A DNA stretch of 64,000 bases from Escherichia coli (lineage in GTDB: Bacteria; Pseudomonadota; Gammaproteobacteria; Enterobacterales; Enterobacteriaceae). This document shows, one piece after another, positions 21,009 to 38,999 of the stretch. The notes under the pieces were generated by a model. That model worked only from the letters and a program-made list of their open reading frames with translations. It ran no database searches and was not told the origin of the DNA. The translations under genes and the position numbers were made by a program. The stretch's first letter is position 1. Each line of letters opens with the position of its first letter. The DNA lies in NCBI RefSeq assembly GCF_003018255.1, contig NZ_CP027440.1, one strand, 5' to 3'.

Positions 21009-21129
21009 ATTGCCTCCGTATAAAATATGAATATAAAATAAGCAGGCGGTCAGTGTACGCTTAACTGGTAAAGTCGGTGCCTGCCTCCGGGTGGATCATG
21101 TATGCGGGTTCGACCCCCGCCACTGACCG

Positions 21130-22461: not shown

Positions 22462-24043
22462 CCAGCATCCCCTTCATTTCCGCAGCAAACATGGCATCAC
22501 TGAGCAGCGTCATCAGGCGGGAATCATCCATTTCACGGTAAAGGGCAGGCAGGTCTGCCAGTGCCTCCGCCAGCCCCCGCGTTCTGATGGCATCAATGAC
22601 CGGCTCCAGTACCGGGTCGATGGCCTCCTGTAACCGGCGGGCAGGCACCGCATCCCCCATGTCGTCCAGTTCATCTCGGGGGCTGCTTTTCGCTTCCGGC
22701 AGTCTGGCAGCCAGCGCTGTCTGCTCTGTCTTCTCCTGTTTTTCCGGTGGCATCTCTTTGTCTGTCTGAGCAGGTTCATTGCCACTCTGACGGACACGGA
22801 AGATGGCTTCACCGGGGGCAGGCTGTGGAATACCGGTCTGCTCCCGTACCCAGGGATCAGGAATATCCATCCCCGTACTGAGCTGCATCACCGCACTGGT
22901 GATTTTGGTGATATCCCCCGGCTCTTTTGTCTGGAAACAGATACGCGGCAGGCGACGGATATCAATGGCGTGGGCGGTGTTCAGGGCATACAGCGGATAC
23001 ACCAGATCGCGGTTCAGCGTGGCGGCCAGCTGACGTAAATCAGAATCCCTGATTTCCCGGCGCACCTCGTTATGCACTTCACCCAGCGAACGTGCGCCCT
23101 TGTCTCCGGCTTCCGTGGTCAGCGTGCCGCCGAGGATAGCTTTGGAGATGGAACGCTCCCCCCACGAAATCATGGTTTCAAACGGATCGGCCTGACCGTT
23201 CGCTGCCGCCTGAAACTCCAGCGACATCCCGGCCGGGATGATCCCGCCTGTACGTCGCCCGATATCCATCACCGCCCGCATCAGGGCGCTTTTCTGCTCC
23301 GGTGTTGCCCCGGAGGGGTATTTACCGACCTTCATCGGCAGGCCGTACACCTCCAGAAATTCAGCCAGATCGCGCACGGAATAGTTTTTGAAAATGAACG
23401 GCCAGATAAGCGTTCTGACAAGCCCCGTCGCACCACCGTAGCCGGTGCGTGAACGTGACTGATGCACTATCCAGCCAAAGGGCTGAAACGCCACCCCGGC
23501 ATGGCTGCCGTCACGCAGCCGCAGTTCGCTCAAATCATCCGGGTTAAGGCAGAAATGCCCGCTGTCACGCCAGCGGATGGCGCGGATGATGTGCATTTTA
23601 CCGAGCATCCCGTGCTCAATCTCCATGCAGGAATAGCCTTTCAGGATGGCATCGGTGGCATCAAACAGCATGGCATCAAACCAGTCGGCGGAATGCAGAT
23701 ATTCGTCGAGCATTTCCGCGTCCTTTTTCTCATTCGCGCTGGCGTTCGGGGGCGGCTCAATACTCCAGGGCACGCCCTGAATGGCAAGACGTCGCTTGCC
23801 CAGCTCTGCAAAAAGGTGGGTATCCTTTTCTTCAATGTCAGCGGCCAGATCGGACTGGGCAATCAGATCGCCACGTTCAGCCCCGCGAAGGCACTGTGCC
23901 GCCCGGTTCGGGGTGATACCCGAGGCCGGATGTTCAATATAACGGCTGGCAATCTGCGGAATATCCAGCGCGGCGCTCTGCATCTCCGGGTCAAAGGAGA
24001 AAGGTTTTCCGTCAAGATCAATTATACGTCCCACTACCAGCAC
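22445..24043 (-). CDS. Portal protein (Mu H/gp29-like)
   Basis: 532 aa downstream of terminase large subunit. Confidence 0.85.
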   Translation of the reverse strand: MLVVGRIIDLDGKPFSFDPEMQSAALDIPQIASRYIEHPASGITPNRAAQCLRGAERGDLIAQSDLAADIEEKDTHLFAELGKRRLAIQGVPWSIEPPPNASANEKKDAEMLDEYLHSADWFDAMLFDATDAILKGYSCMEIEHGMLGKMHIIRAIRWRDSGHFCLNPDDLSELRLRDGSHAGVAFQPFGWIVHQSRSRTGYGGATGLVRTLIWPFIFKNYSVRDLAEFLEVYGLPMKVGKYPSGATPEQKSALMRAVMDIGRRTGGIIPAGMSLEFQAAANGQADPFETMISWGERSISKAILGGTLTTEAGDKGARSLGEVHNEVRREIRDSDLRQLAATLNRDLVYPLYALNTAHAIDIRRLPRICFQTKEPGDITKITSAVMQLSTGMDIPDPWVREQTGIPQPAPGEAIFRVRQSGNEPAQTDKEMPPEKQEKTEQTALAARLPEAKSSPRDELDDMGDAVPARRLQEAIDPVLEPVIDAIRTRGLAEALADLPALYREMDDSRLMTLLSDAMFAAEMKGMLDGTGD

Positions 24044-25698
24044 CCCCGATCAAATTCATGATATGCCTCATCGTCATCACGATAACCGCCCTCCATGGCC
24101 CGCGACCGCTCCGGCAGCGCCTGACAGGCTGATTCATCCAGGATGAAGCCCTCCATGTATGACGCCCGGTTTGCCATACAGAGCGCCACGGCAAAATCGC
24201 CATGGCGGCGGGCGTTCACAGCCGTTGCGTTCTGGTCCTTCGTACGCCCCTTGTCAATTTGCGGGATACCGTTCACCACCTTCACATGGCGCAAATCATC
24301 AAGCGTGGTCTGATGGCGGGCGACGAGGATATTCTGATCCTCAAACTCGGCCTTCAGTTTTGGCATCCACTCGCCGTACCACTTCGGCGATAACATCACG
24401 CAGTCGATGATGTCCGGGCCAAAGGCCAGCAGCGCGGCTTCGGCCAGATAGCCGCCGTTACCGGTGGCGTCGAACGCCGCACCGACCAGCGCCGGAACGC
24501 GGGTCAGGATGTACATCATCACCTGCTCCTGCTGGGCATACGGCAGGTTGCGCAGCTCCACGCGAAACACCTCGCGTTTTGCCAGGGATTCAGTGATTTC
24601 CAGCAGCACAAAGCAGGAGAGGTCACCGATGCGGGCAAAGTCTTCCCCGAAGCTGAAGCGGGAACGGGGATTTAACGCCTCTAAAAGCGGTTTTAAATGT
24701 TCTTCACACCAGGTTAAAACCTCCGATTCACGCAGCCATGCGGCACGGCTGATGAAGTCGTCCGGGGCTTCAAACGTCAGAATCGGGATGTCGCGGAGCA
24801 TCGCCATTTCAATAAGCGCGTGAGGAATATAGGCACCGCCGGATTTTTTCGGGATACAGCCGTATTCCTCGTCGGCATCCTCACGGGTCGGGGCGTTTTT
24901 GTAGAGATCATCACGCCACTTCTGCTCGCTTTCCGGTGACCATTCGCGGCCGGTGACATAACAGATACGACGGTACAGCCCGTCCGCAATGGCATCATCC
25001 AGGGTAATGCGGTGGACGCTGTAATCCTTGCGCCCCTCGCGGGCTTCCTGAATGTACTGATTAAACAGATTATCGACGCCGTTATGCGTGGAGATAATAC
25101 GCACGCGCGCGCCCCACATGGTGAGCGCCATTGCCGCCTTGAGAAGCTCATCCAGTGACTCGTGGAACGCGGCTTCATCAATCACCACATCCCCCTGAAG
25201 GCCGCGCAGGTTTGACGGACGGGAAGACAGTGCCTGAATTTTGAATCCACTGTTCGGAAAGCGGATCATGTAGGTCAGAATTTCTTCTTTTTTATCCCGA
25301 TCCCAGAAGGTCTGCTCATACACATCAGCATCTGCCAGCTGGTTAAAGGCACGGGAGAACAGTGCGCAGGCAGAAATATATTCCAGCGCCATCTCCTGCT
25401 TTGACCCCACATAAAACACATTGCGGCCACCACGCCGCTTAGGCTTTGCGGCGGTAATGACGTTACGCCCGGCTTCCGCCCAGGTAAGCCCGGTGCGGCG
25501 GGATTTTTCCGCGATGCAGACCTCGCTTTCATCCTCAAACCAGCGGGCCTGATAATCCAGAAATACCGGCATATCACCGGGCAAATCAAGGCTGTCCGGC
25601 ACATCCACGCCCAGCAGGGCTTTTTCACCGGCCAGATCAATTTTGCGGGTGGAGACGGTATTCGTCAGTAAGGGGGAGAGTTCTTCGGCGTTATTCAT
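24034..25698 (-). CDS. Terminase large subunit (Mu gp28-like)
   Basis: 554 aa, position. Confidence 0.85.
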   Translation of the reverse strand: MNNAEELSPLLTNTVSTRKIDLAGEKALLGVDVPDSLDLPGDMPVFLDYQARWFEDESEVCIAEKSRRTGLTWAEAGRNVITAAKPKRRGGRNVFYVGSKQEMALEYISACALFSRAFNQLADADVYEQTFWDRDKKEEILTYMIRFPNSGFKIQALSSRPSNLRGLQGDVVIDEAAFHESLDELLKAAMALTMWGARVRIISTHNGVDNLFNQYIQEAREGRKDYSVHRITLDDAIADGLYRRICYVTGREWSPESEQKWRDDLYKNAPTREDADEEYGCIPKKSGGAYIPHALIEMAMLRDIPILTFEAPDDFISRAAWLRESEVLTWCEEHLKPLLEALNPRSRFSFGEDFARIGDLSCFVLLEITESLAKREVFRVELRNLPYAQQEQVMMYILTRVPALVGAAFDATGNGGYLAEAALLAFGPDIIDCVMLSPKWYGEWMPKLKAEFEDQNILVARHQTTLDDLRHVKVVNGIPQIDKGRTKDQNATAVNARRHGDFAVALCMANRASYMEGFILDESACQALPERSRAMEGGYRDDDEAYHEFDRGCW

Positions 25699-26279
25699 CA
25701 GGCTTTACCCAACAGAATCCCCTTAATACGGGACTCAAGCTGTTCACTCATCCCGTCCACGCCGCGCAGCTCGTCGGTGACGGCGTTTGCCATCTCTTCA
25801 GCAAATGCAGCCCGGATTTCTTTTTCACGCTTAATGCTGCGCTCGGCGGCACTTTCCGCACGCTGTGCTGACAGGAGGATGTCCTTAATAAGACGCATAT
25901 CCACGTCGCTGTCACTGTTCAGGGATTCGGTCGCGGCACGCAGACGGCGGTACATCAGGGCGCGGGACATCTCCAGAATCAGCGCTGTGGTTTCACCGGT
26001 TGGCTTGTCTCCCAGTTCGGCCATCATGGCTTTTGTCTGCTCGCGTAAATCACGCAGGTTACGGGCAATCAGCTCATTACGGGAGGCTTCCCGGCTGATG
26101 GCCGCCGGTGAAAGCTGCTGCTCTTCCGGCAGGCCCGCCTCACGGATCAGACGGTTGATTTCCTCGCGTATCTGGACCTGCGTCAGACGTTTTTCACGCA
26201 GCATTTCCAGCAGTGGCTTACGGATGCTGTCGGGGAGCAAATCCACCTTGCGCACGCGTCCACGCGTCGGCTTGTCCAT
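25698..26279 (-). CDS. Terminase small subunit (Mu gp27-like)
   Basis: 193 aa, charged helical protein just upstream of large terminase. Confidence 0.7.
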   Translation of the reverse strand: MDKPTRGRVRKVDLLPDSIRKPLLEMLREKRLTQVQIREEINRLIREAGLPEEQQLSPAAISREASRNELIARNLRDLREQTKAMMAELGDKPTGETTALILEMSRALMYRRLRAATESLNSDSDVDMRLIKDILLSAQRAESAAERSIKREKEIRAAFAEEMANAVTDELRGVDGMSEQLESRIKGILLGKA

Positions 26280-26281
26280 CG

Positions 26282-26572
26282 TTACCCCCTTGCGCGTGGT
26301 TTCTTCACACCCGGAACGCTGGCGCGACCTTCCGCCACATCCTGACCCCGGCCGGTCAGTTCGGCGATGAAATAACCGTTAACGAGCGTGCGCTTACGCA
26401 CCAGTCCCTGCTCGGCAAGCCAGGCAATGTGGGTGTGAACGGTGTCGCGGGACACGCGGTGGCCGTAATCATCCAGACAGTCCTGGAGCACGGATTCACC
26501 CAGTTCACCGTTGTAATCTGCCAGCGACCGCAGAATGACCAGACGCTGATCTTCAGTAATGAAATCACTCAT
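26282..26572 (-). CDS. Hypothetical protein (Mu gp26-like)
   Basis: 96-aa ORF coupled to terminase genes. Confidence 0.5.
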   Translation of the reverse strand: MSDFITEDQRLVILRSLADYNGELGESVLQDCLDDYGHRVSRDTVHTHIAWLAEQGLVRKRTLVNGYFIAELTGRGQDVAEGRASVPGVKKPRARG

Positions 26573-26877
26573 TGCGTTTTTTTCCTTACAGCCTGCTCCA
26601 GCAGCAGTTCGTTCTGATAGGAGACAGAGCGGAGCGTGGCGTTCGTGGTTTTCAGTTCACCCCGCAGGGTCACGATTTCCACATTCAGACGGTTGACCTC
26701 GGCTTCTGTCGGCAGTGACGACAGGCGGGTTTCCACCTTCTCAACGCGGTCGGAGAGTTTTTCAAAGGCCTCGCGGGGGACAAACGTTTTGCGCATCAGC
26801 GCCATGAATATCCCGCCAGCGGTTGCCGTCGCCGAAAGGATCGGCACAACATAATCTTTAACGATGCTGACCCACAT
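26569..26877 (-). CDS. Membrane protein (Mu gp25-like)
   Basis: N-terminal TM helix followed by coiled coil. Confidence 0.5.
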   Translation of the reverse strand: MWVSIVKDYVVPILSATATAGGIFMALMRKTFVPREAFEKLSDRVEKVETRLSSLPTEAEVNRLNVEIVTLRGELKTTNATLRSVSYQNELLLEQAVRKKTQ

Positions 26878-27151
26878 GACGGGCCTCCATGATGTTCTGG
26901 CAGTTCACACAACGGATGGCATCCGGCACAGCAACAAGACGTGCGGCGGGGATCTCTCCGCCACAGTCCGCGCAGACACGTCTGCCCGGAGCATCCATTG
27001 CCCGGCGCTTACGTGTCAGCCGGTTACAAAGGGCGCGTTCTGATCCCCGCTCCATCACAGCCTGAGCACGATCTGAATCATCCATACCTTTTTCCTTACT
27101 TCGTCTTTCCTGCCGGAACAGCAGGCGTTCCGGCCATATCAGTAAATTCAT
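26858..27151 (-). CDS. TraR/DksA-family C4 zinc-finger protein
   Basis: CADCGGEI...RCVNCQ C4 motif. Confidence 0.65.
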   Translation of the reverse strand: MNLLIWPERLLFRQERRSKEKGMDDSDRAQAVMERGSERALCNRLTRKRRAMDAPGRRVCADCGGEIPAARLVAVPDAIRCVNCQNIMEARHVGQHR

Positions 27152-27467
27152 GTTGTCGCCGCGCCTCCAGACGACGAATACTGGCCTTGTCCACGTTGCA
27201 GTTCTTGATCACCGCCAGCAGTTGCAGGTTGTAAGTGACCGATGCCCCAAACGTGAACGGCTCCGGCGCAGGAGGGACCAGGCAGTCAGCCAGCCATTCA
27301 GCGGGGATCGGCACCGGCTTCACAGGCACGTATTTCACAGACGGCCCGGCGCACCCGATCAGCCACATCATCAGGAACAGGGGCAGAGGCCGCAGGCACT
27401 GCCGCCAGCGACCGGCGGACAACGCTCTGCTGCCCCTCGCTGTGCTGAATGTTCTGTTGTTTTTCAT
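27096..27467 (-). CDS. Putative o-spanin (Rz1-like lipoprotein) embedded in i-spanin frame; start uncertain
   Basis: Frame contains LFLMMWLIGCAGPSVKYVPVKPVPIP: lipobox LIGC followed by Pro-rich region. Confidence 0.4.
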   Translation of the reverse strand: MKNNRTFSTARGSRALSAGRWRQCLRPLPLFLMMWLIGCAGPSVKYVPVKPVPIPAEWLADCLVPPAPEPFTFGASVTYNLQLLAVIKNCNVDKASIRRLEARRQHEFTDMAGTPAVPAGKTK

Positions 27468-27819
27468 TCGTGGCCGCCTCACTGATTTGTGAAATGAGTT
27501 GCAGGGTGTGCTGCTGATTTGCCAGCACCTGACGCGCCTCATCCCGCTCACGCACAAGCACCTGATTATTGTCTTCAAGGCGCTGCGTCTTCTGGTGCAT
27601 TCCCCATATAGCGGCAACCAGTACAGCGATAATCCCCAGCGCCGCCATGCACGCCCCGGCAATCAGGGCCGGTAAGGCATTATTCACCGCAGCCACAGGA
27701 CACCCCGTAACAGCAGTACCGCACACAGCAGCGCTATCATGAGCGGTCGCCAGAAGCGGTTCAGACTTTCGGCAAGTCGTAGCGACATAACCATTCATCC
27801 GCCGAACGGCGGGCCTCAA
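27298..27819 (-). CDS. Putative i-spanin (Rz-like); true start probably downstream of track start
   Basis: TM segment LPALIAGACMAALGIIAVLVAAIWG followed by coiled coil; directly after endolysin. Confidence 0.55.
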   Translation of the reverse strand: MRPAVRRMNGYVATTCRKSEPLLATAHDSAAVCGTAVTGCPVAAVNNALPALIAGACMAALGIIAVLVAAIWGMHQKTQRLEDNNQVLVRERDEARQVLANQQHTLQLISQISEAATNEKQQNIQHSEGQQSVVRRSLAAVPAASAPVPDDVADRVRRAVCEIRACEAGADPR

Positions 27820-28261
27820 GGCCGGGGAGTTTCACCCCCTTTGAATAAATCCAGCGGATATACTGCTTACAGGACGCGGGCATCTGCCCGGCATTGATCA
27901 GGCGCAGAAGCGTGGAGTTGCGAAAGTTCGTTTCACCGGCCCAGAAGATCCACGAAGCCAGCGCCACCGTCTGACCACGGGTAAGCGGCACCTGAACACG
28001 CCGATCAATGGCCGCAAAGGCCCATTTCATGTCCTTTTCCAGTAGTTCCAGGCATTCTTCATCTGTCAGGGTCATACCCGGTTTCACATCCGGGCCGGTA
28101 TGGCCGTAACAGATGGTGGGTGTACCGGAGGGATCGATATACGTGGAGTTTTCTTTCCCTTCCCAGTAACCGGTGTAATGCGTGGCAATCGTGAACGTCC
28201 CGGCACCGGCCAGAACAAGGGCAATCAGCTTTTTACGCAGTGGTGCGGGGAGTTTTGGCAT
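27761..28261 (-). CDS. lys: Endolysin (lysozyme) with SAR-type N-terminal signal anchor
   Basis: 166 aa with N-terminal LIALVLAGAGTFTIA hydrophobic segment as in Mu SAR endolysin. Confidence 0.85.
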   Translation of the reverse strand: MPKLPAPLRKKLIALVLAGAGTFTIATHYTGYWEGKENSTYIDPSGTPTICYGHTGPDVKPGMTLTDEECLELLEKDMKWAFAAIDRRVQVPLTRGQTVALASWIFWAGETNFRNSTLLRLINAGQMPASCKQYIRWIYSKGVKLPGLEARRSADEWLCRYDLPKV

Positions 28262-28262
28262 T

Positions 28263-28300
28263 GTTACGCTGTCTCATGATGTTCTCTGAGTCAGCGTAAC
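28263..28300 (-). promoter_or_regulatory. Inverted repeat between mor/C-like gene and lys (candidate late promoter activator site or terminator)
   Basis: gttacgctg (28263-28271) ... cagcgtaac (28292-28300), 9-bp arms. Confidence 0.3.
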
Positions 28301-28332
28301 GGTGAAGGAGAGGCGGCAGGCTTTGCGGAATA

Positions 28333-28758
28333 TCAGAAAAGTGGCGGTTGCGTTCTTGCCAGATGCAGACGGCGCTGTTCGCGTATGACGGTATAAATCT
28401 GGGTTTCTGACATCCGGTAATGGCGGCGAAGGGATTCAATTTTCTCGCCCCGGTCCCAGCGCGAAAATATCTCATTGTTTCGCAGCTCGGCAAAGAGAGA
28501 TTCCCCGACCGGCAGGTAATAACCCCGTCCGCCCATATAGGCTGCCTGAGCCGCAGCCACCTTGCGTGCCAGTTTACCGGCCAGTACCGGCTCAATCCCC
28601 TGACGCTGAAGTTCTGCGCCGGTGACTTCAACCAGTTCTGACAGGGTCCGCGGCCAGTTCTTTTTGAGAACATCATCAGGGATGTCATCAAGGCGGTCGA
28701 TAAGGGCGTGCAGTTGCTCACTGTCACCACCAAACATGCTCATCTGAGTTTCTGCCAT
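28333..28758 (-). CDS. Mor/C-family transcriptional activator
   Basis: 141 aa with C-terminal HTH; resembles Mu Mor. Confidence 0.8.
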   Translation of the reverse strand: MAETQMSMFGGDSEQLHALIDRLDDIPDDVLKKNWPRTLSELVEVTGAELQRQGIEPVLAGKLARKVAAAQAAYMGGRGYYLPVGESLFAELRNNEIFSRWDRGEKIESLRRHYRMSETQIYTVIREQRRLHLARTQPPLF

Positions 28759-28827
28759 ATCAGCCTCCGGTTCTCGCGTTCCCGGTAAGTTTAAAATAAA
28801 AATCCCGCGTTGTGGCGGGATTTGGAG

Positions 28828-29337
28828 TTAACGGGGAAGTGATTTTTCATACTGCCTGCAAACGGCGTCATACCCCATCAGCGTGCGTTCGGGCATTCCC
28901 ATCGCGGCCAGCATTTTGCGGCGGTGCCATCGCTTGAGACGCTCCAGCACATCTGAGGCCAGGGCGGGGTGTTGCTCCAGCCACTGCCAGTTTGCCACAC
29001 CTTCGCCGCCGTTTTGCGCGGCCGTCTGCGATTTCACCCAGCGGTTAAGGGCGGTTTCCGCACCATCGGTGATAAAGCCCTGCCGGTGCATCACCTTCCA
29101 GATGGCGCGAATTTTGGCGGTCACCGTACCCGGTTTTAAGGCCCGGTTAACCGGGTTCTGACGCACTTTAAAACCGCGTTTTTTGAAAACATCCAGCACG
29201 CGGGATAACTCATCCGGTGACATATCCCGGCAGCTGGTTTTGCCGGTGGCTGCCAGCAGCGCGGATGTATAAGTCTCATCATCCAGGGCAAGCTCGCGCT
29301 TTGCCACATGAATGGCGGATATCAGTTTTCCTCTCAT
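28828..29337 (-). CDS. gemA: GemA-like protein (Mu gp16)
   Basis: 169 aa; position immediately upstream of mor-like gene. Confidence 0.7.
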   Translation of the reverse strand: MRGKLISAIHVAKRELALDDETYTSALLAATGKTSCRDMSPDELSRVLDVFKKRGFKVRQNPVNRALKPGTVTAKIRAIWKVMHRQGFITDGAETALNRWVKSQTAAQNGGEGVANWQWLEQHPALASDVLERLKRWHRRKMLAAMGMPERTLMGYDAVCRQYEKSLPR

Positions 29338-29630
29338 ACCGTATTTACCTTTTTACGGACATGGAAAGCCTTTTCTGCCTCATCCCACCGGGCATGGTGT
29401 GTTGGTGGAATAATCATTATGTGCCAGCCATCTCTGGTTGTTATCCGGCAGAAAAATTCACCGCTATATAACACAATGGCCTGCTGAATGAGCGCATCAG
29501 CCGCCCGTTCAACCGGATGTCTTTTATCAAAAAAGCAGATGATTTTTCGACATAACCACCGGGTAATAACAAATGCGCCGAAAAAGGATGTGATATATAA
29601 GCACCAGAACAACAGAGAACTATTGTCCAT
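29334..29630 (-). CDS. Hypothetical early protein with N-terminal TM helix
   Basis: ORF coupled in early operon. Confidence 0.5.
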   Translation of the reverse strand: MDNSSLLFWCLYITSFFGAFVITRWLCRKIICFFDKRHPVERAADALIQQAIVLYSGEFFCRITTRDGWHIMIIPPTHHARWDEAEKAFHVRKKVNTV

Positions 29631-29817
29631 TATCTTTCTCCTTATTCAGTCTTCTGCGACATTCGGCACAGTCATCAGGGCTTTCAAATGTATCCGGCTC
29701 GCGATTATGAGCCAGATATAACCACCGCCTACATATACTGATATTATCGCCAGTTTTAAAAAAATGATGCTTCTTAGCCATCAGAGGGCGCGCCCATCCA
29801 GCGGGTAGACTATTCAT
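29620..29817 (-). CDS. Hypothetical small early protein (Cys-containing)
   Basis: 65-aa ORF coupled in early operon. Confidence 0.45.
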   Translation of the reverse strand: MNSLPAGWARPLMAKKHHFFKTGDNISICRRWLYLAHNREPDTFESPDDCAECRRRLNKEKDNGQ

Positions 29818-30184
29818 TTGCTTTATCCTCCATACTGGACAAAATCATCTGTATTAATGTCGGGCGTGGAGATATACGCATTTCATTAAGCGTCTGAAGG
29901 GCAGCAACAGCTGCCTGTTTATCGGTGCCTTTGGCAATTTCCGCAAGAGAATGCACAATCCATAACGGACTTAACGCCACGACTGAATCCAGAATCATGT
30001 CATCCATAATAATTTCTGACACATCCCGCTTATCACATTCCTTATCCATAAAAGAAACGATTTTTTCCACATCTTCCGGTTTCATGCCTCCGGCGATAAG
30101 AAATTTGCGATACTCATAAGACGATCTTAATTCAATACTCATATTCATCTCCTGTAACTCTGACAAGGACGTGATTTTTCTCAT
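29810..30184 (-). CDS. Hypothetical early protein
   Basis: 124-aa ORF. Confidence 0.5.
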   Translation of the reverse strand: MRKITSLSELQEMNMSIELRSSYEYRKFLIAGGMKPEDVEKIVSFMDKECDKRDVSEIIMDDMILDSVVALSPLWIVHSLAEIAKGTDKQAAVAALQTLNEMRISPRPTLIQMILSSMEDKANE

Positions 30185-30366
30185 TTATGTTTTCCAGTAA
30201 TACGGATATATATGTCGATAAGAAGATTCATAATAAACAGGAAGAGCGACATCCTGATAAAGAACCAAATATCTGGCATCATGGACAGGTTTCCTGTAAT
30301 CGCAAATATAACCCCCCCCCCCAACACCGGAACGAAAATTGCGAAAAATACAAGTCTCTTTATCAT
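30181..30366 (-). CDS. Small two-TM membrane protein containing an 11-nt poly-G tract
   Basis: MIKRLVFFAIFVPVLGGGVIFAI...; C11 run on plus strand at 30312-30322. Confidence 0.5.
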   Translation of the reverse strand: MIKRLVFFAIFVPVLGGGVIFAITGNLSMMPDIWFFIRMSLFLFIMNLLIDIYIRITGKHK

Positions 30367-30914
30367 GGCGTTAACTCCCGTAATACAGCGTCCTCGGCAG
30401 TCCGGCGATGGTGATAAATAAAATTCACCGTACTCTCGGATAATTCAAATTTCTCGCCTATTTCCCGGAAGGTAAGACGTCGTGGTGATTCAGCATCCCG
30501 TAATTCACGAATAAGATGAACATCATCGTCAGGTATACGGGTGAAGGGCAGCAATTCTCCGTATTTTTTCATGCTTACGCCAATATATCGCGCCCGATTG
30601 TGGACAGAATCCCGGTCTCGCCCCAGATATTCTCCTATTTGCTTACCGGTCATCGTTCTGGCATTTTTTCGGATAAATTTATCTTCATCATGTTTAAATC
30701 TTGGACGTTTGCATTTGAGCAACTCCGGGTAAGTACCGCGTAATAAAACAATCCGGTTATGTACACCCCAGAAACTTCTTTTTACCCTGACAGCAATATC
30801 CTTAACCGGGGTGGATGGATAAAGCGCAATCAGCAGCGCATCTTCTTCAGGTGTCCACGCACGGACATGAGCAGGTGCCTGACCTTTTCGCCCCATGGGT
30901 TGTAAAATCATCAT
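30363..30914 (-). CDS. Hypothetical early protein with C-terminal HTH-like segment
   Basis: LTFREIGEKFELSESTVNFIYHHRR helix-turn-helix-like. Confidence 0.5.
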   Translation of the reverse strand: MMILQPMGRKGQAPAHVRAWTPEEDALLIALYPSTPVKDIAVRVKRSFWGVHNRIVLLRGTYPELLKCKRPRFKHDEDKFIRKNARTMTGKQIGEYLGRDRDSVHNRARYIGVSMKKYGELLPFTRIPDDDVHLIRELRDAESPRRLTFREIGEKFELSESTVNFIYHHRRTAEDAVLRELTP

Positions 30915-30917
30915 ACA

Positions 30918-31433
30918 TCACCCCCTGACTCGCTTTTCAGCAGCATAAAACTCATCAGACAGAATTTCGGTCATTTTCTGATTTGCGGGTTTTACGCCGC
31001 ACTCAAGGTAAATCACATCGTCAACGCAGAACCACTTCACAGGGCCAAACATGATTGCCGAGAAATCAATACCCAGCCAGAACAACAGTGCATCGGTTCT
31101 GGCATACGTGACGGGCGAATATTCACGCCACAGACTGTTAAGTTCGTCAGAGGCAACGCGCAGGGCTTTGGGAATACGTGATGTGCGCGGTGTGCAGCTC
31201 CAGCCATTCGACGCAGTCGGTTTTCGCCATAAGTCGCGATGAAAAGGATATTTGTCATCCATAAAGCGCAGCCCTTTAAAACAAAAGCCACTGATACCGG
31301 ATACAAATACCGACCGGCACGCAACATTCAGCACGGCCTCAAGGCGTTTTGCCTCATCCTTAACTTTCTGGCAGTCCTGCTGATATTTTTGCCACGCGGC
31401 CAGCGCGGAAGGGTTTGATGTTTTAAAGAACAT
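30918..31433 (-). CDS. Hypothetical early protein
   Basis: 171-aa ORF. Confidence 0.5.
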   Translation of the reverse strand: MFFKTSNPSALAAWQKYQQDCQKVKDEAKRLEAVLNVACRSVFVSGISGFCFKGLRFMDDKYPFHRDLWRKPTASNGWSCTPRTSRIPKALRVASDELNSLWREYSPVTYARTDALLFWLGIDFSAIMFGPVKWFCVDDVIYLECGVKPANQKMTEILSDEFYAAEKRVRG

Positions 31434-31966
31434 TACGCCACCTCCGCAGATATCCCGGCAGGCGCGGCCGTCCGGTCAACAATCAGGTAACGCAGAACGC
31501 GCGAGGTGATATTCCAGCCGCTTAAACCGCAGATAATGACACCCAGGCGTATGTCGATATACGCCATCACAAACTGGGGCACGCCTTCTTTCATGGCCTG
31601 CTCATCAACTTCAGCCACCACATAAACGGTTTCACAGGTCAGAACGCCCTGAGCAAATTCCCACGCCATTGACGGAATATCATGCCCCTCAATCCACGGC
31701 AGGGATTTTCTGAAGCTGCACCACTGAACATCATCAGCCGCACCTTCCTGGCTGCATTTGCGACGAACCGGCTGCACCGGGCGGGGACGCGGAATATCAT
31801 AAAAACCGTTACATTCCGTCAGCACCCCGGCATCGACCGCATCACGCAGAAAATAAACCATCGAGGATGGCGGCATATTCATTTTTTCAGCCAGAATGCC
31901 GCAGGTCAGACGCCCGTAAATACTCAGCCAGTTTTTAACCCCTTCAAGCACTTTTGCATCAATCAT
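31433..31966 (-). CDS. Hypothetical early protein (possible N-terminal winged-helix)
   Basis: 177-aa ORF. Confidence 0.5.
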   Translation of the reverse strand: MIDAKVLEGVKNWLSIYGRLTCGILAEKMNMPPSSMVYFLRDAVDAGVLTECNGFYDIPRPRPVQPVRRKCSQEGAADDVQWCSFRKSLPWIEGHDIPSMAWEFAQGVLTCETVYVVAEVDEQAMKEGVPQFVMAYIDIRLGVIICGLSGWNITSRVLRYLIVDRTAAPAGISAEVA

Positions 31967-31969
31967 GAA

Positions 31970-32512
31970 TTATTCCTCCGTCAGCGCCACATATTCAGAA
32001 TGTTTAATCTCCTGGCATTCTTCAGGAATACCCCCTTTTATTTCCCTGCCATAAGCGCCTACTTTAAACACCACGCACAGGGCATCACGGGAGAGCGACG
32101 GGGTCCACCAGGAGTCCATGTTAAACATGGAGGGGATTCTCATTACCCCCAGCTTTTCACAGAGCCAGACAAGGAAATCAGGACGCTTTCTTAACTCGCG
32201 TTCAGCGGCTTCAATCATTGCGGCAATCGCCGGTCCTTCAGGGCATGACTCATCAGGTCTGGCAATAAAGCACGGTCCGTCCCCGATAAAAGCCACATCA
32301 TCGCGCTTACGCCAGCCCGCAGGCAGAGCACCAGAAAAATAAAACTCACTGATTACGTCCATGGCAAACGGCTTTAAGCGCAATCCGGCAGCGCCTGTAT
32401 TTTTCAGTAATGCCCGAAGAATACTGTTGCGTAGCGGTAAAACAGTCTGTTGATATTTGGTGAAATATTTATTTGTCTGCACACGGTCTAATTTGAAATA
32501 AAAATATGCCAT
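31970..32512 (-). CDS. Hypothetical early protein
   Basis: 180-aa ORF. Confidence 0.5.
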   Translation of the reverse strand: MAYFYFKLDRVQTNKYFTKYQQTVLPLRNSILRALLKNTGAAGLRLKPFAMDVISEFYFSGALPAGWRKRDDVAFIGDGPCFIARPDESCPEGPAIAAMIEAAERELRKRPDFLVWLCEKLGVMRIPSMFNMDSWWTPSLSRDALCVVFKVGAYGREIKGGIPEECQEIKHSEYVALTEE

Positions 32513-32609
32513 ATATCCTGTTCCTTATTTTCAGTTTACAGGCGCAGGCAGTCCCCTGACGCGAGCGCCATACTTAAAACGATGTGATATTTAAAGATTT
32601 AATGCGGTG

Positions 32610-33140
32610 TTATTTATTCAGTCCGGCGTCCTGTTCAAAAGGCTCGACATAAAAACTTTCAGCGCCTTTATTCACCTTAATACCGGCAATGCCTTTCACT
32701 GCATCCGGCTCCGCCAGGACCGCTTCCTTGTTCACTTCCTCTTTCGTGCGGATGAATCGCTCAAGCCCCATACGGCGCAGCATTTCAATCACACCTTCCA
32801 CATCACGGCTGACGCTGCATGATGGATTTCCCAGCCGCCATGATACTGTTCCGGTGGTCAGATTGGCTGTTTTGGTTTTGCCGCCGTTCGTCAGCTCATC
32901 GCGGTTGGTTTTGCACCAGTCCTGAATCCCCTTAAAAAGCACTTTGATTTCTTTTTTAAGGTTTTCAATCTGCGGCGTATAACGGGCGGTGATTTCTGCC
33001 ACTTCATCATTCATCGCCGTTTCCAGCCGCAGCGCCTCTCGCTGAATATCGCCCAGGGTACGGATATCGCGGCTGACTTCTTCGCGGGTCTGCGGTGCAG
33101 CCTCGGCTGCGGCCTTTAATTTTGTAACACGTTTAGCCAT
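32610..33140 (-). CDS. gam: Gam host-nuclease inhibitor (DNA-end binding)
   Basis: 176 aa, MAKRVTKLKAAAEAAPQTREEVSRDIRTLGDIQRE... matches Mu Gam. Confidence 0.85.
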   Translation of the reverse strand: MAKRVTKLKAAAEAAPQTREEVSRDIRTLGDIQREALRLETAMNDEVAEITARYTPQIENLKKEIKVLFKGIQDWCKTNRDELTNGGKTKTANLTTGTVSWRLGNPSCSVSRDVEGVIEMLRRMGLERFIRTKEEVNKEAVLAEPDAVKGIAGIKVNKGAESFYVEPFEQDAGLNK

Positions 33141-33151
33141 TTTGTTTTTCC

Positions 33152-33445
33152 TTATTGCAGTGTGCCTGATGCTTTATGCACGCGGTGGCGTTTAATGATG
33201 GCATCCGCCCCAAAAGCCTGTACAGATGCCTGAAATTCCGCTGAGAGAAACTGAATAATTTCAGGACTGTGATACTGGAGAATACTTGCATAAACGTCAC
33301 AGAGTGACGTCGGCCTGTTATTCGTATCACGTTCTGTTTTTACATCCACACCAATCTTTTCATGCACTTCAACACAGTCATTGCCTGCCGGTTTTTCGTC
33401 ATGCGAAACATGCTTAAATTCAAAAATAACGCGTACTTTGCTCAT
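33152..33445 (-). CDS. Small hypothetical protein, paralogue A (start MSKVRVIFEFK)
   Basis: N-terminus nearly identical to adjacent gene. Confidence 0.5.
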   Translation of the reverse strand: MSKVRVIFEFKHVSHDEKPAGNDCVEVHEKIGVDVKTERDTNNRPTSLCDVYASILQYHSPEIIQFLSAEFQASVQAFGADAIIKRHRVHKASGTLQ

Positions 33446-33449
33446 GGAA

Positions 33450-33722
33450 TTACCCCTGCTGATTAAATTCATTACCTTTAATAACCCCGGAACGCATGCT
33501 CATATCTTTCATGAGCGCACTGGCTTTCATTGCCACAAGTTCAGCAAAGTCTCTGCTTTCCGCGAGCATAACCACCCCAAAAATCATGGCGGGTCCATCA
33601 CCTTTCTGCTTTATCCCGGTTGAACGTATGTCCAGACTTACCCCCATGCGCACTGTTCCATCAGCGTTTTTATGGATAACGTGCTCCTTGTATTCGAAAA
33701 TAATGCGTACGACTTTACTCAT
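33450..33722 (-). CDS. Small hypothetical protein, paralogue B (start MSKVVRIIFEYK)
   Basis: Tandem diverged duplicate of 33152-33445. Confidence 0.5.
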   Translation of the reverse strand: MSKVVRIIFEYKEHVIHKNADGTVRMGVSLDIRSTGIKQKGDGPAMIFGVVMLAESRDFAELVAMKASALMKDMSMRSGVIKGNEFNQQG

Positions 33723-34000
33723 CCTCTGGTCCTCGTTCTGTTTGGATAACTGACCCGGCGTCTGACCTCACGGCAGAACCGAATCATGGCATTAAAGGCT
33801 TCTTCCTCCGTCACCGCTTCCGGTATCCCCGGAACCAGTAACTGCTCCTGTTCATCACGTCCATGACGCGCCATAACCTCAATCACATGCCGTACCGTGG
33901 CAGGCTTTCCGGCAACTATCGGCAATGCACCTTCCGGCAGGACGTAACCAAACTCAATAAGACCACTCGACCACGCCCATGCAATGAGATTTTTTTTCAC
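33719..34000 (-). CDS. Hypothetical early protein
   Basis: 93-aa ORF. Confidence 0.45.
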   Translation of the reverse strand: MKKNLIAWAWSSGLIEFGYVLPEGALPIVAGKPATVRHVIEVMARHGRDEQEQLLVPGIPEAVTEEEAFNAMIRFCREVRRRVSYPNRTRTRG

Positions 34001-34001
34001 C

Positions 34002-34268
34002 TCACACCTCCCAGTAAACCGTGCAGCCGCTGATGCGGGTGGCCTTCACACGGCGGCGCAGGCCGTTGGTCTGTATGGTGATTTCAATTTCACCGGTTCC
34101 CTGCACGTTGCCTACCGGCGGCGTGGTTTTCAGTGCAAAACGTTGCGGATAGCGCTTACTGCGTTCCAGTACCGCACCGGCAAGTTCGGTCAGACGGCGC
34201 GCGCTGTTCAGGGAGTCGAATAAATTCATTTTGTTACCGCAGGATTGCATATTCATATAACACCTCAT
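34002..34268 (-). CDS. Hypothetical early protein
   Basis: 88-aa ORF. Confidence 0.4.
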   Translation of the reverse strand: MRCYMNMQSCGNKMNLFDSLNSARRLTELAGAVLERSKRYPQRFALKTTPPVGNVQGTGEIEITIQTNGLRRRVKATRISGCTVYWEV

Positions 34269-34496
34269 TTAGCTGACTTGTTTCGCACCAACAGAACGGC
34301 ATATTCCGCTGTAAACGTCTGTCGCACCTTCGCGATCAAGTCCGGCAGATATCACCATTCGTGTGCGGTCATTAAATTCAAAAAGAAAATCGCCACATTC
34401 TTTATTTTCGGCCAGTGAAATCACCTTCACGTTATCGAAATTAACCAGGTAAAAGCGTCCGTAAATATCAGGAATATTAAATACCGCCATAATCAC
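34269..34496 (-). CDS. Hypothetical early protein at kil position (directly after B)
   Basis: 75-aa ORF; position only. Confidence 0.4.
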   Translation of the reverse strand: MIMAVFNIPDIYGRFYLVNFDNVKVISLAENKECGDFLFEFNDRTRMVISAGLDREGATDVYSGICRSVGAKQVS

Positions 34497-35425
34497 ACCT
34501 GTGAGAGTAATTCAGGGTTGGTATAAACCTCTTTAAAGGCCGCATTAATATGTTTTTCTGTCAGCGCCGCGCCTTCACCGCTGGCGGTGAGCCACGCCTG
34601 GTTAAGCGTATGTGTCAGAACGCGTAACGCTCCCGGCTTTTCAGCGATAGCCTGCATGACGGCCAGCTCGGCCTCACCACTGATCCCCCACGCCCTGGCA
34701 ATGGCCAGCACATCCGCCTTTTTGGCCTTGCGAAGTTGTTTTGTACGGGCAAGACGGCTGAACAGGCGCGATAAATCATCAAAGGCGCGGCGTCCACCTT
34801 TAAACAATCCGCGCGGGTTACCAATAAGCACCATCCCGATCCCCGTGGCGTCCTGAATTGCCCGGAGTTGCTCCAGACCGTCAATACCAAGATGATCCGC
34901 CTCATCCACAATCACCAGTCCACGCGTTCCCATCAGGCGACGGCGGATGGCGCGGGATAATGCCCCTTTGTTCGCGCGGGTGTAATCAATCCCCAGCGCA
35001 TCGGCCAGCTCCAGCAGACACTCCGTGACGCTGGAGTGCGCGGGTGACAGGGTGATCATCCAGGTGTTTGGTTGCTCCTGGCAGTAATTACGGGCAGTGG
35101 CCGTTTTACCCACACCCGGTACGCCCACAATAACGTTAATACAGCCCATCAGACGAACCGCCTGAAACAGTGCGCGCAGCTCCTGGACTGTCTGCGTTTC
35201 CACAAACTGCGGCGGTTCCGGCAGTGCGCTTTGTTTATTCCAGTTCTCATACCAGGAACGCAGGGAAGCAGCCACAGCAGCGTTATCGCCTTTATATTTT
35301 CCCTTACGGAAAGCCGATAATGTGCCGTCGGAAATTCCCGCCTCTCTGGCGATGGCATACTGCGTCAGTACGCCGCCATCAATAAGTTCATCAATGGTCT
35401 TGATTACATCGTTAATATCAGTCAT
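34493..35425 (-). CDS. Transposition ATPase B (MuB-like, AAA+)
   Basis: Walker A GVPGVGKT, N-terminal HTH-like region; directly downstream of transposase. Confidence 0.9.
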   Translation of the reverse strand: MTDINDVIKTIDELIDGGVLTQYAIAREAGISDGTLSAFRKGKYKGDNAAVAASLRSWYENWNKQSALPEPPQFVETQTVQELRALFQAVRLMGCINVIVGVPGVGKTATARNYCQEQPNTWMITLSPAHSSVTECLLELADALGIDYTRANKGALSRAIRRRLMGTRGLVIVDEADHLGIDGLEQLRAIQDATGIGMVLIGNPRGLFKGGRRAFDDLSRLFSRLARTKQLRKAKKADVLAIARAWGISGEAELAVMQAIAEKPGALRVLTHTLNQAWLTASGEGAALTEKHINAAFKEVYTNPELLSQV

Positions 35426-35496
35426 ATTATTAACCTCTCATTTGATACCTTGTTTAATCAAATAACCTGAGTCGCCGCTCGGGTTATTTTTTTATT

Positions 35497-37587
35497 TCAG
35501 GCCAGCGGGTCATTTTCTTTTAATTTCGCTTCCAGCAACTGCAATCCCCGCTGGAAATTACGCTCGTATTCTTCATCAGGTTCATCGTCAGCGACCGGTT
35601 GCTGAACGGTCACCGTATTACCCACAGGGCGGTATATGTTTTCCAGCCAGGGCTCCTGCGGCTTGTGCTCCAGCACGTTGACAACCTCATCCTCGGCATC
35701 ACGGATTTTTTCCTCTGCGCGTTTACGCATGCCTTTAAGGCGTTGCTGCTGTTTGTAGTATTCCGCGCTAACCGGGAAGGCTTCGCGTTTATTACCGTCC
35801 CATACCGCCTCGCAAATCACGCTGCCATCCAGGCGACGTACGGTAATTCGTTCGGCATCATGAATGTCATAGCTGATAAGCACCTTACGACCATGCTCGT
35901 CACGCAGCTCGGGCGCGTAGTAAATATTATTCAGCCAGCGTATTTCACAGCGTCTTACAGGGCGTTCCACCATCGGCCGGAACATATCCCGCAGCTCAAC
36001 ATCGGACAGCCATTCAATTTCCGTGTCCTCTTCCGCCAGGCGTTTTTTTCTGAACTCCGCCGGGCTGTAATGCTTGCCGTTCGGCTTCACCGGTAATTCA
36101 TCGTGCGGCCGGTTGTTGTACCACTCAACACCGTCACGAATGGCATCAATCAGTTCAGACCAGGACGGTAAATCACGCATCGCTGACTGCTGCCGGGCGT
36201 TCAGCCGTTTGCCCTGTTGCAGGGCAGTAAATGCCGAGCGTAAATCGCGGTTGGTTTTGCGTAACGTCTCGCGATCTGCACCTTTCCCGAAATAGGTGCG
36301 GTATTTACGGGCTATGCGCATCGGTAATGTGCGGTTAAGCCGTTCGATAATGCCTCGTCCCTGCGGATTACCGGCAATCCCGGTCGGGTGATTAATCCCC
36401 AGTCGCGGCAGTATCCCCACAACCTCCTTATCCAGGATGTCGGCGGTTTCCCCGGAGCCGTTATCCGAGTAATACAGAAACGGTTTGCCGTGATGGCGAA
36501 TGCCGTGCTGTATGGCACCGGCTACGGCGAAAACATTTTCAGCCAGGTCAAGGCTCCAGCCCACCACAAAGCGCGTGCCACCGTCGATAACAAAGGTCAC
36601 TTCCGGTGCAAATGGCCGACCGTGAACCGGGTGTGCGCATTTCAGCTTCATGCCGTGACCGTCACCAATCCAGACATAATTCACCGGCATTCTGGACCAG
36701 TCGCGGCGCGTGAATCCCTCAAGCTGGCGGTATTCACTGCCGGTCACCCGGCCTTTTTGTTTCACCACTTCCGGCAGTTTCTTCATTGCGCGGCGAATGG
36801 TGTCATAAGACGGCATGATATCGAGCATATAAGGCTCATCAGCGTGCCGGTGCTGCCATTCAGCGACAAAATCCTCGTAAGCCTCGGTCATTGGTCGGCC
36901 GTTTGACTGGCGATACTGCGCCAGAAATTCGGGCAGCCAGTTAATATCTTCAGCTTTTATTTCCTGGCGCTTACCCGGTGCCAGTAAAAGCAGGCGTTCA
37001 GCGGCGTTCTGCGCCTTGTTAAAGGCCGCAATCCAGCGTTTCAGCGTTATTTCACTCAACGCACGGCTGTTTCCCTTTTTGGCGTTCGCCGTCTCAACCA
37101 TTGCCACAATGCGCTCGTCCAGTTGCGAACGTGCCAGGTTGTCAACGATAAACCGGATAGCTTTCGCACAGCTGAAACCGGGTTGTTGCGCGACTTTCAT
37201 CACTTCGCTGACGATCGCAATTCGTGCATCAGCCACCTGGCGCTGGTTTTCAGTCAGGGCATTAAGGCGTTCAACCATCAGTTGTGGTGATCCGCGATAT
37301 GCCTCCACCGCATCAACCACGGCAGGCGAGCGTCTGGCCTTTGTCACCACCGGAGCCGGTGATTCATCAGCTTTTTGCGTCATCAGTTGAAGGGCATAAC
37401 GTTCACGCAATACTTGTTGCGCGCCAGAAGGCAAACAATCGATATTAAATTCGATTGCTTTTGTCCCCTTACGTTTGCGTAACATGGCTGCATTTCCCGC
37501 AGCTGCTTTTGTGAGTCGATGGCGAATGTTATGTTCCATCATTGGTAAATCAGGAAGACCAACACATTCTTTTGCTGTTACCCACAT
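35497..37587 (-). CDS. DDE transposase A (MuA-like)
   Basis: 696 aa, N-terminal MWVTAKECVGLPDLP resembles MuA. Confidence 0.9.
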   Translation of the reverse strand: MWVTAKECVGLPDLPMMEHNIRHRLTKAAAGNAAMLRKRKGTKAIEFNIDCLPSGAQQVLRERYALQLMTQKADESPAPVVTKARRSPAVVDAVEAYRGSPQLMVERLNALTENQRQVADARIAIVSEVMKVAQQPGFSCAKAIRFIVDNLARSQLDERIVAMVETANAKKGNSRALSEITLKRWIAAFNKAQNAAERLLLLAPGKRQEIKAEDINWLPEFLAQYRQSNGRPMTEAYEDFVAEWQHRHADEPYMLDIMPSYDTIRRAMKKLPEVVKQKGRVTGSEYRQLEGFTRRDWSRMPVNYVWIGDGHGMKLKCAHPVHGRPFAPEVTFVIDGGTRFVVGWSLDLAENVFAVAGAIQHGIRHHGKPFLYYSDNGSGETADILDKEVVGILPRLGINHPTGIAGNPQGRGIIERLNRTLPMRIARKYRTYFGKGADRETLRKTNRDLRSAFTALQQGKRLNARQQSAMRDLPSWSELIDAIRDGVEWYNNRPHDELPVKPNGKHYSPAEFRKKRLAEEDTEIEWLSDVELRDMFRPMVERPVRRCEIRWLNNIYYAPELRDEHGRKVLISYDIHDAERITVRRLDGSVICEAVWDGNKREAFPVSAEYYKQQQRLKGMRKRAEEKIRDAEDEVVNVLEHKPQEPWLENIYRPVGNTVTVQQPVADDEPDEEYERNFQRGLQLLEAKLKENDPLA

Positions 37588-37597
37588 ACATCCCCCA

Positions 37598-37864
37598 TCA
37601 AGCCACTTCTCTGGCGTCCACCTGGTATCTGCTGGGCCAGATTACAGCAGGTTCAACCCCTATTTTTTCGGCGATGGCGGCTTCGTATTTACGGCACTGG
37701 CGGTAAAACACATTGCGCATTGATCCGCTTTTTAATCCTAACTCCCTTTCCAGTTCAGGGAGGTCTGTGCCTTTGTTTTCAAGGGCTGCATATACCGCTT
37801 TAGCAGACCAGTCACACCCCTCTCGAACAAACAAATTATTCGATGCTTGTCTGGATACCCTCAT
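37598..37864 (-). CDS. ner: Ner-like DNA-binding regulator
   Basis: C-terminal EPAVIWPSRYQ matches Mu Ner. Confidence 0.8.
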   Translation of the reverse strand: MRVSRQASNNLFVREGCDWSAKAVYAALENKGTDLPELERELGLKSGSMRNVFYRQCRKYEAAIAEKIGVEPAVIWPSRYQVDAREVA

Positions 37865-38020
37865 TGTGTGATCCTCTCATGTTTACCTGAACCGATAATC
37901 AAAACCGGTTATCGATTTAGGTAAATCATAATCGCAAAATAATTCGATATCAACGGTTTTTTGCGAGCATATCGAAATTAAATGCGATGTCGATAATTTC
38001 TTTGTTTTATAGGGGGTTAT
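37865..38020. promoter_or_regulatory. Divergent early/repressor promoter-operator region
   Basis: 156-bp gap between divergent ner and repressor genes with repeated TCGATA/TTATCG motifs. Confidence 0.55.
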
Positions 38021-38632
38021 ATGGATAAGGCAGAAAAAACCGTATCCAGTGCGGAACGGTTTATTGATATGGAAGGAATAAACCGATTTTCAGAACGCTT
38101 AGCTATGGCTATGGGAAACATGACAAACGTCGAACTGGCGACCCTTTGTGGACTATCTGAAGCCACAGTAAGAAATTACAGGAAGGGGAAAAACTTCCCT
38201 CCTTTGGATAAACTGGCCTTAATAGCTAAAGCCTGTAATTGTTCACTCGAATGGTTGGCCACAGGCAAGAACGAAGATGAATGCGGAAAAATCGAAAACA
38301 ATTGCGATTCAGGTTCGGGTATTGATCAGGCGCTTAGCTCTCTAAGCCCCCAAGAGAAGCAATTAATCCTTACATTCATCAGGCGAGAAGGTACTAATAA
38401 CCTTGTCAGGCTGGCAGCAATGAATACATCTACAATCAGCCAGGATGCGGTAGAAAGCATCATTGATGCCTTGCCATTACGTCCCGTACTAAAAAATGCA
38501 ATAAAGATAGGAATGGCGGGAAGTGAAGAAACAGACAAAGAGATTTTGCGCGTTATTGAGAAGTACAACTCGAGCAATAACGCCACCCAGGAATCAGGGG
38601 CAGTGACAGTAAAGAAAAATGTTGTTGGTTAA
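38021..38632 (+). CDS. Prophage repressor (c-like, HTH)
   Basis: 203 aa with HTH (VELATLCGLSEATVRNYRKGK), divergent from ner/A/B. Confidence 0.75.
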   Translation: MDKAEKTVSSAERFIDMEGINRFSERLAMAMGNMTNVELATLCGLSEATVRNYRKGKNFPPLDKLALIAKACNCSLEWLATGKNEDECGKIENNCDSGSGIDQALSSLSPQEKQLILTFIRREGTNNLVRLAAMNTSTISQDAVESIIDALPLRPVLKNAIKIGMAGSEETDKEILRVIEKYNSSNNATQESGAVTVKKNVVG

Positions 38633-38778
38633 GCGCCATCGCTATCATGAGGTGGTGCTGTAAATACATATAGAGATCATATGACTCATCCCAAGATAAT
38701 CACGCTATTGAATAGTAATTCATGATGATTATCATACTGATTATAGTTAGATCGATTATGTGAGCATTTTGGCAGTTT

Positions 38779-38812
38779 GAAGATGTTTTGAAGATGTTTT
38801 GAAGAAGATTTT
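38779..38812. repeat. Tandem repeat (gaagatgtttt x2 plus partial third) near left end
   Basis: Direct sequence repetition at 38779-38812. Confidence 0.6.
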
Positions 38813-38828
38813 AAGGGTAAATTAGCAG

Positions 38829-38983
38829 TATCAAATGTGTCGCCGTTTTTTGATCTTTTGACTATTTGTTGAGCAGTCGGTATCAAAAAGAGTTTTCCGT
38901 CCGAAGTATACATCACCTGTTTTATTTCAGCATCTTACAGGTGATTTCACCTCCTTTCACTAAAACCCTTGTCGGTATCAAAT
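38829..38983. repeat. Left-end transposase-binding site cluster (three GTATCAAA repeats)
   Basis: gtatcaaa at 38829, ggtatcaaaaa at 38879, ggtatcaaa at 38974; inverted copies of the right-end sites. Confidence 0.6.
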
Positions 38984-38999
38984 GATTCACCTGGTTACA

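Follow-up and report, generated by a model that had tools for sequence, protein, structure and literature searches.

A length-variable poly-G tract in a predicted small membrane-protein gene of an Sp18-type Mu-like prophage of Escherichia coli

Gene content and insertion sites of the prophage

The window analysed here, a stretch of 64 kb of Escherichia coli DNA that matched the chromosome of E. coli strain War (NZ_CP074717.1) at 100% identity, carried a Mu-like prophage of the same type as Sp18 of O157:H7 Sakai (Table 1), an element previously predicted to be intact (Asadulghani et al. 2009; PMC2669165). The prophage possessed genes for a repressor, transposase A/B, Kil, Gam, gp12, GemA, Mor, lysis, head and tail proteins, a Gin-like invertase and Com. 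On the minus strand these ran in the order repressor, Ner-like protein, transposase A, transposase B, Kil, Gam, gp11-like protein, gp12-like protein, a 183-aa DNA-binding protein and a 61-aa protein, followed by three small ORFs, GemA/gp16, Mor, lysozyme and the morphogenesis genes, with the 61-aa gene situated in the early region. In strain War the prophage was inserted into the portal gene of a lambdoid prophage, two fragments of which flanked it (window 1-158 and 38991-39218). An exact 5-bp target-site duplication was not resolved, and a 4-bp AACG repeat alone was found at the ends as placed. Near-identical copies were situated elsewhere in other strains, at comEC, at siiEA and near dinI, and further insertion sites lay beside a UbiD gene, beside a gene for a citrate/sulfate-type transporter and in another lambdoid terminase/portal region. 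The occurrence of near-identical copies at different sites indicates recent transposition or infection.

Other features of the prophage were recorded alongside. The Gin-like recombinase gene adjoined a truncated tail-protein gene on the opposite strand (window 4461-5471), and this region is the invertible segment, typical for Mu-type phages, that determines host range. A CDS at 1294-1756 was annotated as frameshifted, and a Com-family regulator was encoded at 979-1179. RefSeq placed a 'tRNA-OTHER' feature at 21049-21128, between the virion-morphogenesis and head-morphogenesis genes, and relatives were annotated likewise; no tRNA was found at that position by ARAGORN or Rfam (gathering threshold), the sole tRNA of the window being a tRNA-Phe at 56952-57027.

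Table 1. Features of the prophage and of the 61-aa gene, and alleles of its G tract (coding strand)
Feature	Position in window	Strand	Remarks
Sp18-type Mu-like prophage	159..38999	-	left end 38999 exact; right end near 159 approximate
110-aa gene, downstream	29810..30142	-	own AGGAG at 30153-30149; starts 38 nt downstream of the 61-aa gene
61-aa protein gene, two hydrophobic segments	30181..30366	-	confined to Sp18-type Mu-like prophages of E. coli and Shigella
TAA stop of the frame entered by G12 or G9	30185..30187	-	products in public assemblies: P0031, P0033
TGA stop of the frame entered by G10 or G13	30279..30281	-	truncates the product to 28-29 aa
Uninterrupted G11 tract	30312..30322	-	codons 15-19, TTG GGG GGG GGG GTT = L G G G V
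Four derived A-to-C substitutions	30317, 30316, 30313, 30312	+	fused C5 + CC into C11
183-aa DNA-binding protein gene, upstream	30363..30914	-	phrog_323 transcriptional regulator; TGA overlaps the ATG of the 61-aa gene
GTGTT-G9-TTTT			seen in 93_0495
GTGTT-G6-T-GG-TTTT			seen in 380-94, RM13322
GTGTT-G5-TT-GG-TTTT			seen in 90-3040
GTGT-G6-TT-GG-TTTT			seen in Sakai Sp18
G5ACTGG, G4ATTGG			more distant alleles
G12			P0031, 22 contigs; DNA of L011/L026 shows G12
G13			L014/L028
G9			P0033, 6 contigs; L020/L027
G8, in frame			P0002; L021
G11 then T3			P0034; L022

A small gene for a predicted two-helix membrane protein

The 61-codon ORF translated to MIKRLVFFAIFVPVLGGGVIFAITGNLSMMPDIWFFIRMSLFLFIMNLLIDIYIRITGKHK, beginning MIKRLVFFAIFVPVLGGGVIFAITGNL, and was annotated by RefSeq in strain War as a hypothetical protein (WP_047381727.1). 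Its two hydrophobic segments, at approximately residues 5-25 and 33-56, would fit a two-helix membrane protein. The ORF is taken to be a real gene because pairwise pN/pS among its alleles was low (0.17-0.35), because frame and length were kept in alleles up to 28% different at the protein level, because its ATG overlapped the stop codon of the upstream gene (ATGA, 30366-30363), and because it encoded the two hydrophobic segments. In a tblastn search of 50,697 phage records the protein hit only Mu-like elements inserted in Stx phages, and no homolog was found in Mu, D108 or SfMu. Comparison with PHROGs gave a weak match alone, to a family of unknown function (phrog_19804), neither NCBIfam nor PADLOC returned a match, and no Pfam domain was listed for homologs in the database's precomputed annotations. 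No surface-antigen or defence signature was recognised in this ORFan by PHROGs, tblastn, NCBIfam or PADLOC.

Probable origin of the G tract by substitution

On the plus strand, positions 30312-30322 of the window read CCCCCCCCCCC, a run of 11 C that forms G11 on the coding strand of the 61-aa gene. An earlier sequence-only reading had reported an 11-G run within a gene for a 61-aa protein with two transmembrane segments, and its coordinates, strand, codons and protein size all matched ours. The tract was the sole homopolymer longer than 8 nt in the whole window, in which 0.03 G/C runs of 11 or more would be expected from base composition.

A search with a 1,151-nt query around the gene retrieved 232 records among 5,426 complete E. 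coli genomes, whereas an exact 91-nt query centred on the tract matched strain War alone in the same set. The nearest relatives were equal in length to War and differed from it at the tract by T-to-G substitutions on the coding strand. Substitution of this kind, which the sequence-only reading had not noted, made up most of the variation among related prophages. G5TTGG, G6TGG, G9T4 and G11T2 were found as members of a series; the G10T3 step was not found among the 5,426 complete genomes, and at the protein level it is indistinguishable in the larger protein collection. We regard G11 as the derived state because all divergent alleles were interrupted (G5TTGG, G6TTGG, G5ACTGG, G4ATTGG). The extant alleles suggest that substitutions proceeded in the order G5TTGG to G6TGG to G9 to G11.

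The changes were concentrated at the tract. War differed from L007 and L008 by four and three changes, respectively, within 6 nt of the tract and by none in the 630 nt to each side (1,261 flanking nt). The closest whole prophage (L025) showed 33 differences in 28.7 kb, two of them in the tract, and in a position-by-position comparison with L023, L024 and L025 the nearest differences outside the tract lay more than 500 nt away. Each of the four changed plus-strand bases was an A directly 5' of a C run, that is, of C5, of C6 (fusing with CC to give C9), of C9 and of C10. In E. coli, an A:T-to-C:G hotspot has been described at AC3+ sequences, where the A 5' of a C run is replaced so that the run is extended to CC3+ (PMC13250602). 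The locus shared features of this hotspot, as the altered base lay beside the run, became a run base and was on the described side, and the local density of substitutions was far above that of the surroundings. The hotspot is of the transient-misalignment type (Kunkel and Soni 1988 model; PMC13250602), and here all four changes were A-to-C, at an A 5' of at least five C's, and each extended the run; transient misalignment is the probable route of the substitutions. Whereas the hotspot literature concerns single events in mutation-accumulation lines (PMC13250602), the alleles here formed a four-step natural series that ended in a length-unstable run.

Two other accounts of the tract were considered and set aside. 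The tract is not conserved across related prophages, given that War alone carried it among the 5,426 complete genomes and that IMG/VR held interrupted alleles only, with no uninterrupted tract. A diversity-generating retroelement as the source of adenine-specific changes was rejected, as just four positions varied, all at the border of the run, and no reverse transcriptase was annotated in the prophage.

Length variation of the uninterrupted tract

In a collection of 15 billion proteins, at least 228 contigs (395 index blocks) encoded the protein of the G11 allele (P0020), and G11 was confirmed in the DNA of four other assemblies (L012, L035, L036 and L037). The sequence-only reading had offered an assembly error as its alternative, and for this genome it was rejected, as the same G11 protein recurred on contigs of independent assemblies and G11 was verified in DNA. 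Its main proposal, that the tract is prone to slippage, fared better: G8, G9, G11, G12 and G13 all occurred in otherwise identical DNA, so that tract length varied rather than being uniform across related prophages. Over 0.9-3.1 kb of flanking sequence the variants matched the window without a single mismatch, and the G8, G9, G13 and G11T3 variants were flanked alike (GTGTT...TTATATTTGCG). Three contigs, L035 (G11), L027 (G9) and L028 (G13), shared one 40-nt host junction and approximately 20 kb with 0-1 mismatch, and their lengths of 55,580, 55,578 and 55,582 nt differed exactly by the tract difference; they represent one lineage in which the tract is the only variable site. The G12 example was situated at an insertion site of its own.

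Out-of-frame products of the uninterrupted allele occurred on 22 + 6 + 2 contigs, plus the G13 cases, versus at least 228 contigs in frame. For the interrupted alleles they occurred on 6, 9, 9 and 1 contigs, versus at least 1000 in-frame contigs for each of three alleles, so that frameshifted forms, relative to in-frame forms, were at least 10 times rarer than for the uninterrupted allele. Two of the frameshifted interrupted-allele copies were flagged 'frameshifted' in RefSeq and one was in IMG/VR. A 33-aa downstream ORF (P0040) marked frame-disrupted copies, and the single copy with an uninterrupted tract that was read there was G13. No G10 allele was observed, its 28-aa product being too short to have been called in the protein collection. 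The 22 G12 contigs may be one clone that records a single event, and some of the other variant counts may likewise reflect clonal descent instead of independent events. We infer that the length changes arose via slipped-strand mispairing in replication and that, over the time in which clones diversify, the tract switches often.

Consequences for the reading frame

The tract was translated in silico at lengths from G7 to G15. G11 and the in-frame lengths G8 and G14 gave the two-helix protein. At G9, G12 and G15 the first 17-19 residues were kept and were followed by YICDYRKPVHDARYLVLYQDVALPVYYESSYRHIYPYYWKT in an unrelated, polar and Tyr-rich tail of 41 residues; the G9 and G12 products were 59 and 60 aa long, respectively, and had lost the second hydrophobic segment. 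The G12 frame was open for all 42 codons (30185-30311, minus strand), to a TAA 1 nt before ATG 30184. Such openness was reached by 3.4% of codon-order shuffles in a single post-hoc test, and it may be due to chance. From these translations, tract length would decide whether the small membrane protein is made.

The sequence-only reading had extended the possible effect to a coupled downstream gene, a suggestion that did not stand. Translational coupling at the ATGA at 30184-30181 was rejected, as this motif begins merely a longer mechanical ORF. The start of the downstream gene at ATG 30142 was agreed on by PGAP, an independent call of the 110-aa gene and a PHROG profile, phrog_1988 aligning from residue 15 of the longer ORF, i.e. 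from that start, and the gene has a ribosome-binding motif of its own (Table 1). The TAA of the G12 frame also falls at the place of the normal stop. The downstream 110-aa gene therefore appears independent of the tract, and a change in length would be expected to leave neighbouring genes unaffected.

By-product of mutation bias or evolved switch

We consider it likely that the tract, situated in an accessory gene for a small membrane protein, is a real homopolymer that arose recently and is hypermutable, that the Mu-like prophage carrying it is active, and that the tract is a by-product of mutation bias. Four A:T-to-C:G transversions would have converted an ancestral GGGGG-TT-GG-TTTT, via G6TGG and G9, into G11, each turning the base beside the growing run into a run base. 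Once uninterrupted, the run would slip in replication, giving the observed G8, G9, G11, G12 and G13, and its length is computed to set the product as the two-helix protein, the polar-tailed form or a stub of 28-29 residues. The gene itself would be a dispensable early-region gene that is mostly held in frame by purifying selection. G11 was retained in prophages 0.3% apart at different insertion sites; the dominance of in-frame G11, together with the low pN/pS, argues that the protein is of importance to the phage, with OFF states selected against and not exploited. The early operon of Mu is repressed in lysogens, and by analogy the operon of the 61-aa gene is expected to be silent in them. The non-adaptive reading draws on this analogy and on absence of evidence. 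We have filed the locus, from its sequence, as a hypermutable simple-sequence locus rather than as an established phase-variable gene.

Alternatively, the tract might be an evolved contingency locus, at which selection keeps ON and OFF variants of the membrane protein in the phage or lysogen population, for example as bet-hedging on superinfection exclusion, lysis timing or host toxicity. The locus has several properties of such genes. The tract, being uninterrupted and inside an ORF, exceeds the threshold of seven or more G/C given for contingency tracts in an ORF or promoter (PMC2193922), and its length and composition are typical of phase-variable poly-G genes. Tract length was polymorphic among close isolates, with ON and OFF lengths both occurring in nature within one lineage. 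The on/off logic of the frame is intact, length toggling between a full-length and a disrupted product, and the G8, G9 and G12 products were present in public assemblies. G11 was kept at several prophage insertion sites, and the G12 frame is open to the normal end of the gene, as in few codon shuffles. Gonococcal pgtA, moreover, likewise has a poly-G tract beside an interrupted allele, with a biological meaning proposed there. However, the tract was not maintained across lineages: it was present in 1 of 5,426 complete genomes, most alleles lacked it, and three interrupted alleles were each found on at least 1000 contigs versus 228. The gene is an ORFan without surface-antigen or defence signature, its early-operon position is one that is repressed in lysogens of Mu, and a mutational bias already known accounts in full for how the run arose. 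We judge an adaptive switch unlikely since only one allele has the tract, the mutational bias is known, no surface or defence role was recognised and the operon would be silent as in Mu; the locus is probably not an evolved contingency switch.

It is quite improbable that the length differences, and possibly the run itself, are sequencing or assembly artefacts at a difficult homopolymer, the true sequence being uniform. Long G runs are error-prone on all platforms. Most of the length variants came from automated short-read assemblies (Logan), prone to error at such runs, so some of them could be artefacts, and two relatives were flagged 'frameshifted' by RefSeq. However, hundreds of independent assemblies, as well as a finished genome, showed the same G11, and G5TTGG, G6TGG and G9 each recurred on at least 1000 contigs and in many genomes that were finished. 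Consensus errors are an unlikely cause of the -3, -2 and +2 nt variants (G8, G9 and G13), individual frameshift products were seen repeatedly, on 6 to 22 contigs, and the three contigs of 55,578, 55,580 and 55,582 nt differ by the exact tract difference. Expression-level slippage, by RNA polymerase or through ribosomal frameshifting on G GGG GGG GGG G, by which both products would come from one allele, is highly improbable: 11 identical bases would let tRNA-Gly or the transcript re-pair in any frame and the alternative frame is open to the end of the gene, but the alternative-frame peptide has no independent conservation, as most alleles lack the run, neither a stimulatory structure nor a Shine-Dalgarno-like element upstream was evident in the sequence, and transcriptional slippage in E. 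coli is documented for A/T runs (Wagner et al. 1990, as cited in PMC1378130).

Comparison with known systems and implications

In its behaviour the locus resembles the poly-G/C contingency loci known from Neisseria, Haemophilus and Campylobacter, and most closely gonococcal pgtA, which likewise has an intragenic 11-G 'on' tract whose frame is shifted by a change of ±1. In that species, the 11-G 'on' allele coexists with a GGGAGCGGGG allele that differs by two bases (PMC2193922). In both systems the tract is uninterrupted or interrupted depending on the strain (GGGAGCGGGG in pgtA; G5TTGG, G6TGG or G9T4 here) and its length varies between isolates, and the pgtA 11-G tract yielded frameshift variants when carried in E. 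coli (PMC2193922). The locus departs from those of the pgtA type in its host, since E. coli has proficient mismatch repair and in general few long runs, and in its gene, a prophage ORFan from the early region where pgtA-type loci have surface-structure genes. The tract is also rare among alleles, and the switch here is a putative one. The same prophage carries a genuine evolved switch, in that its Gin-like recombinase gene is situated by tail-fibre gene fragments, as in the Gin-mediated inversion of the G segment in Mu-type phages. Gin acts by site-specific inversion to alter host range, and is mechanistically unlinked to the G tract. We found nothing relevant in the literature on poly-G tracts in E. 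coli Mu-like prophages.

E. coli is usually held to be poor in slipped-strand switches. It is possible, though improbable, that the tract is a contingency locus just coming into being, in a transposable phage that was recently active in Shiga-toxin-producing E. coli, and a switch built stepwise by mutation bias that toggles a membrane protein with a real phenotype. If so, that phenotype might be superinfection exclusion, host killing or modulation of lysis, with heritable ON/OFF heterogeneity in the phage or lysogen population, and no slipped-strand phase-variable gene would have been described before it in E. coli phages of the Mu type. Were the membrane protein to have a phenotype, the locus would lend itself to the study of phase variation at its onset in a phage. 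As a by-product, the tract would be a clean natural illustration that a hypermutable run can arise without selection for variability, the natural isolates preserving the whole route by which an ordinary stretch of glycine/valine codons became a length-unstable G11, each step of it at the hotspot that recent mutation-accumulation work predicts. In practical terms, 'frameshifted pseudogene' calls can be foreseen at this tract, as can spurious SNP/indel differences in outbreak genomics of STEC with Sp18-type prophages.

Further differences in the prophage and the 61-aa gene

In the lysozyme gene, position 28129 was a base private to War, with T on the coding (minus) strand versus A in L023-L028 (19-29 kb compared), and was the only difference besides the tract from the most closely related prophage copies. 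A second slippage site was observed in the 61-aa gene itself, at 30344-30350 (minus strand, codons 6-8), where Sakai-type alleles have T7 (CTTGTTTTTTTCG) and T6 and T8 variants occurred in public assemblies (L015, L019 and L018); in the allele of the window this run is interrupted (GTATTTTT). One homolog, P0015, on a 1.43-Mb contig, followed the +1 frame for approximately 14 codons past the tract (GGWFYICDYRKPVHDARY) and then returned to the normal frame (WFFIRMSL...). The pattern resembles a second, compensating frameshift by which the second hydrophobic segment would be restored and, unless it reflects two sequencing errors instead, the return to frame hints at selection on that segment.
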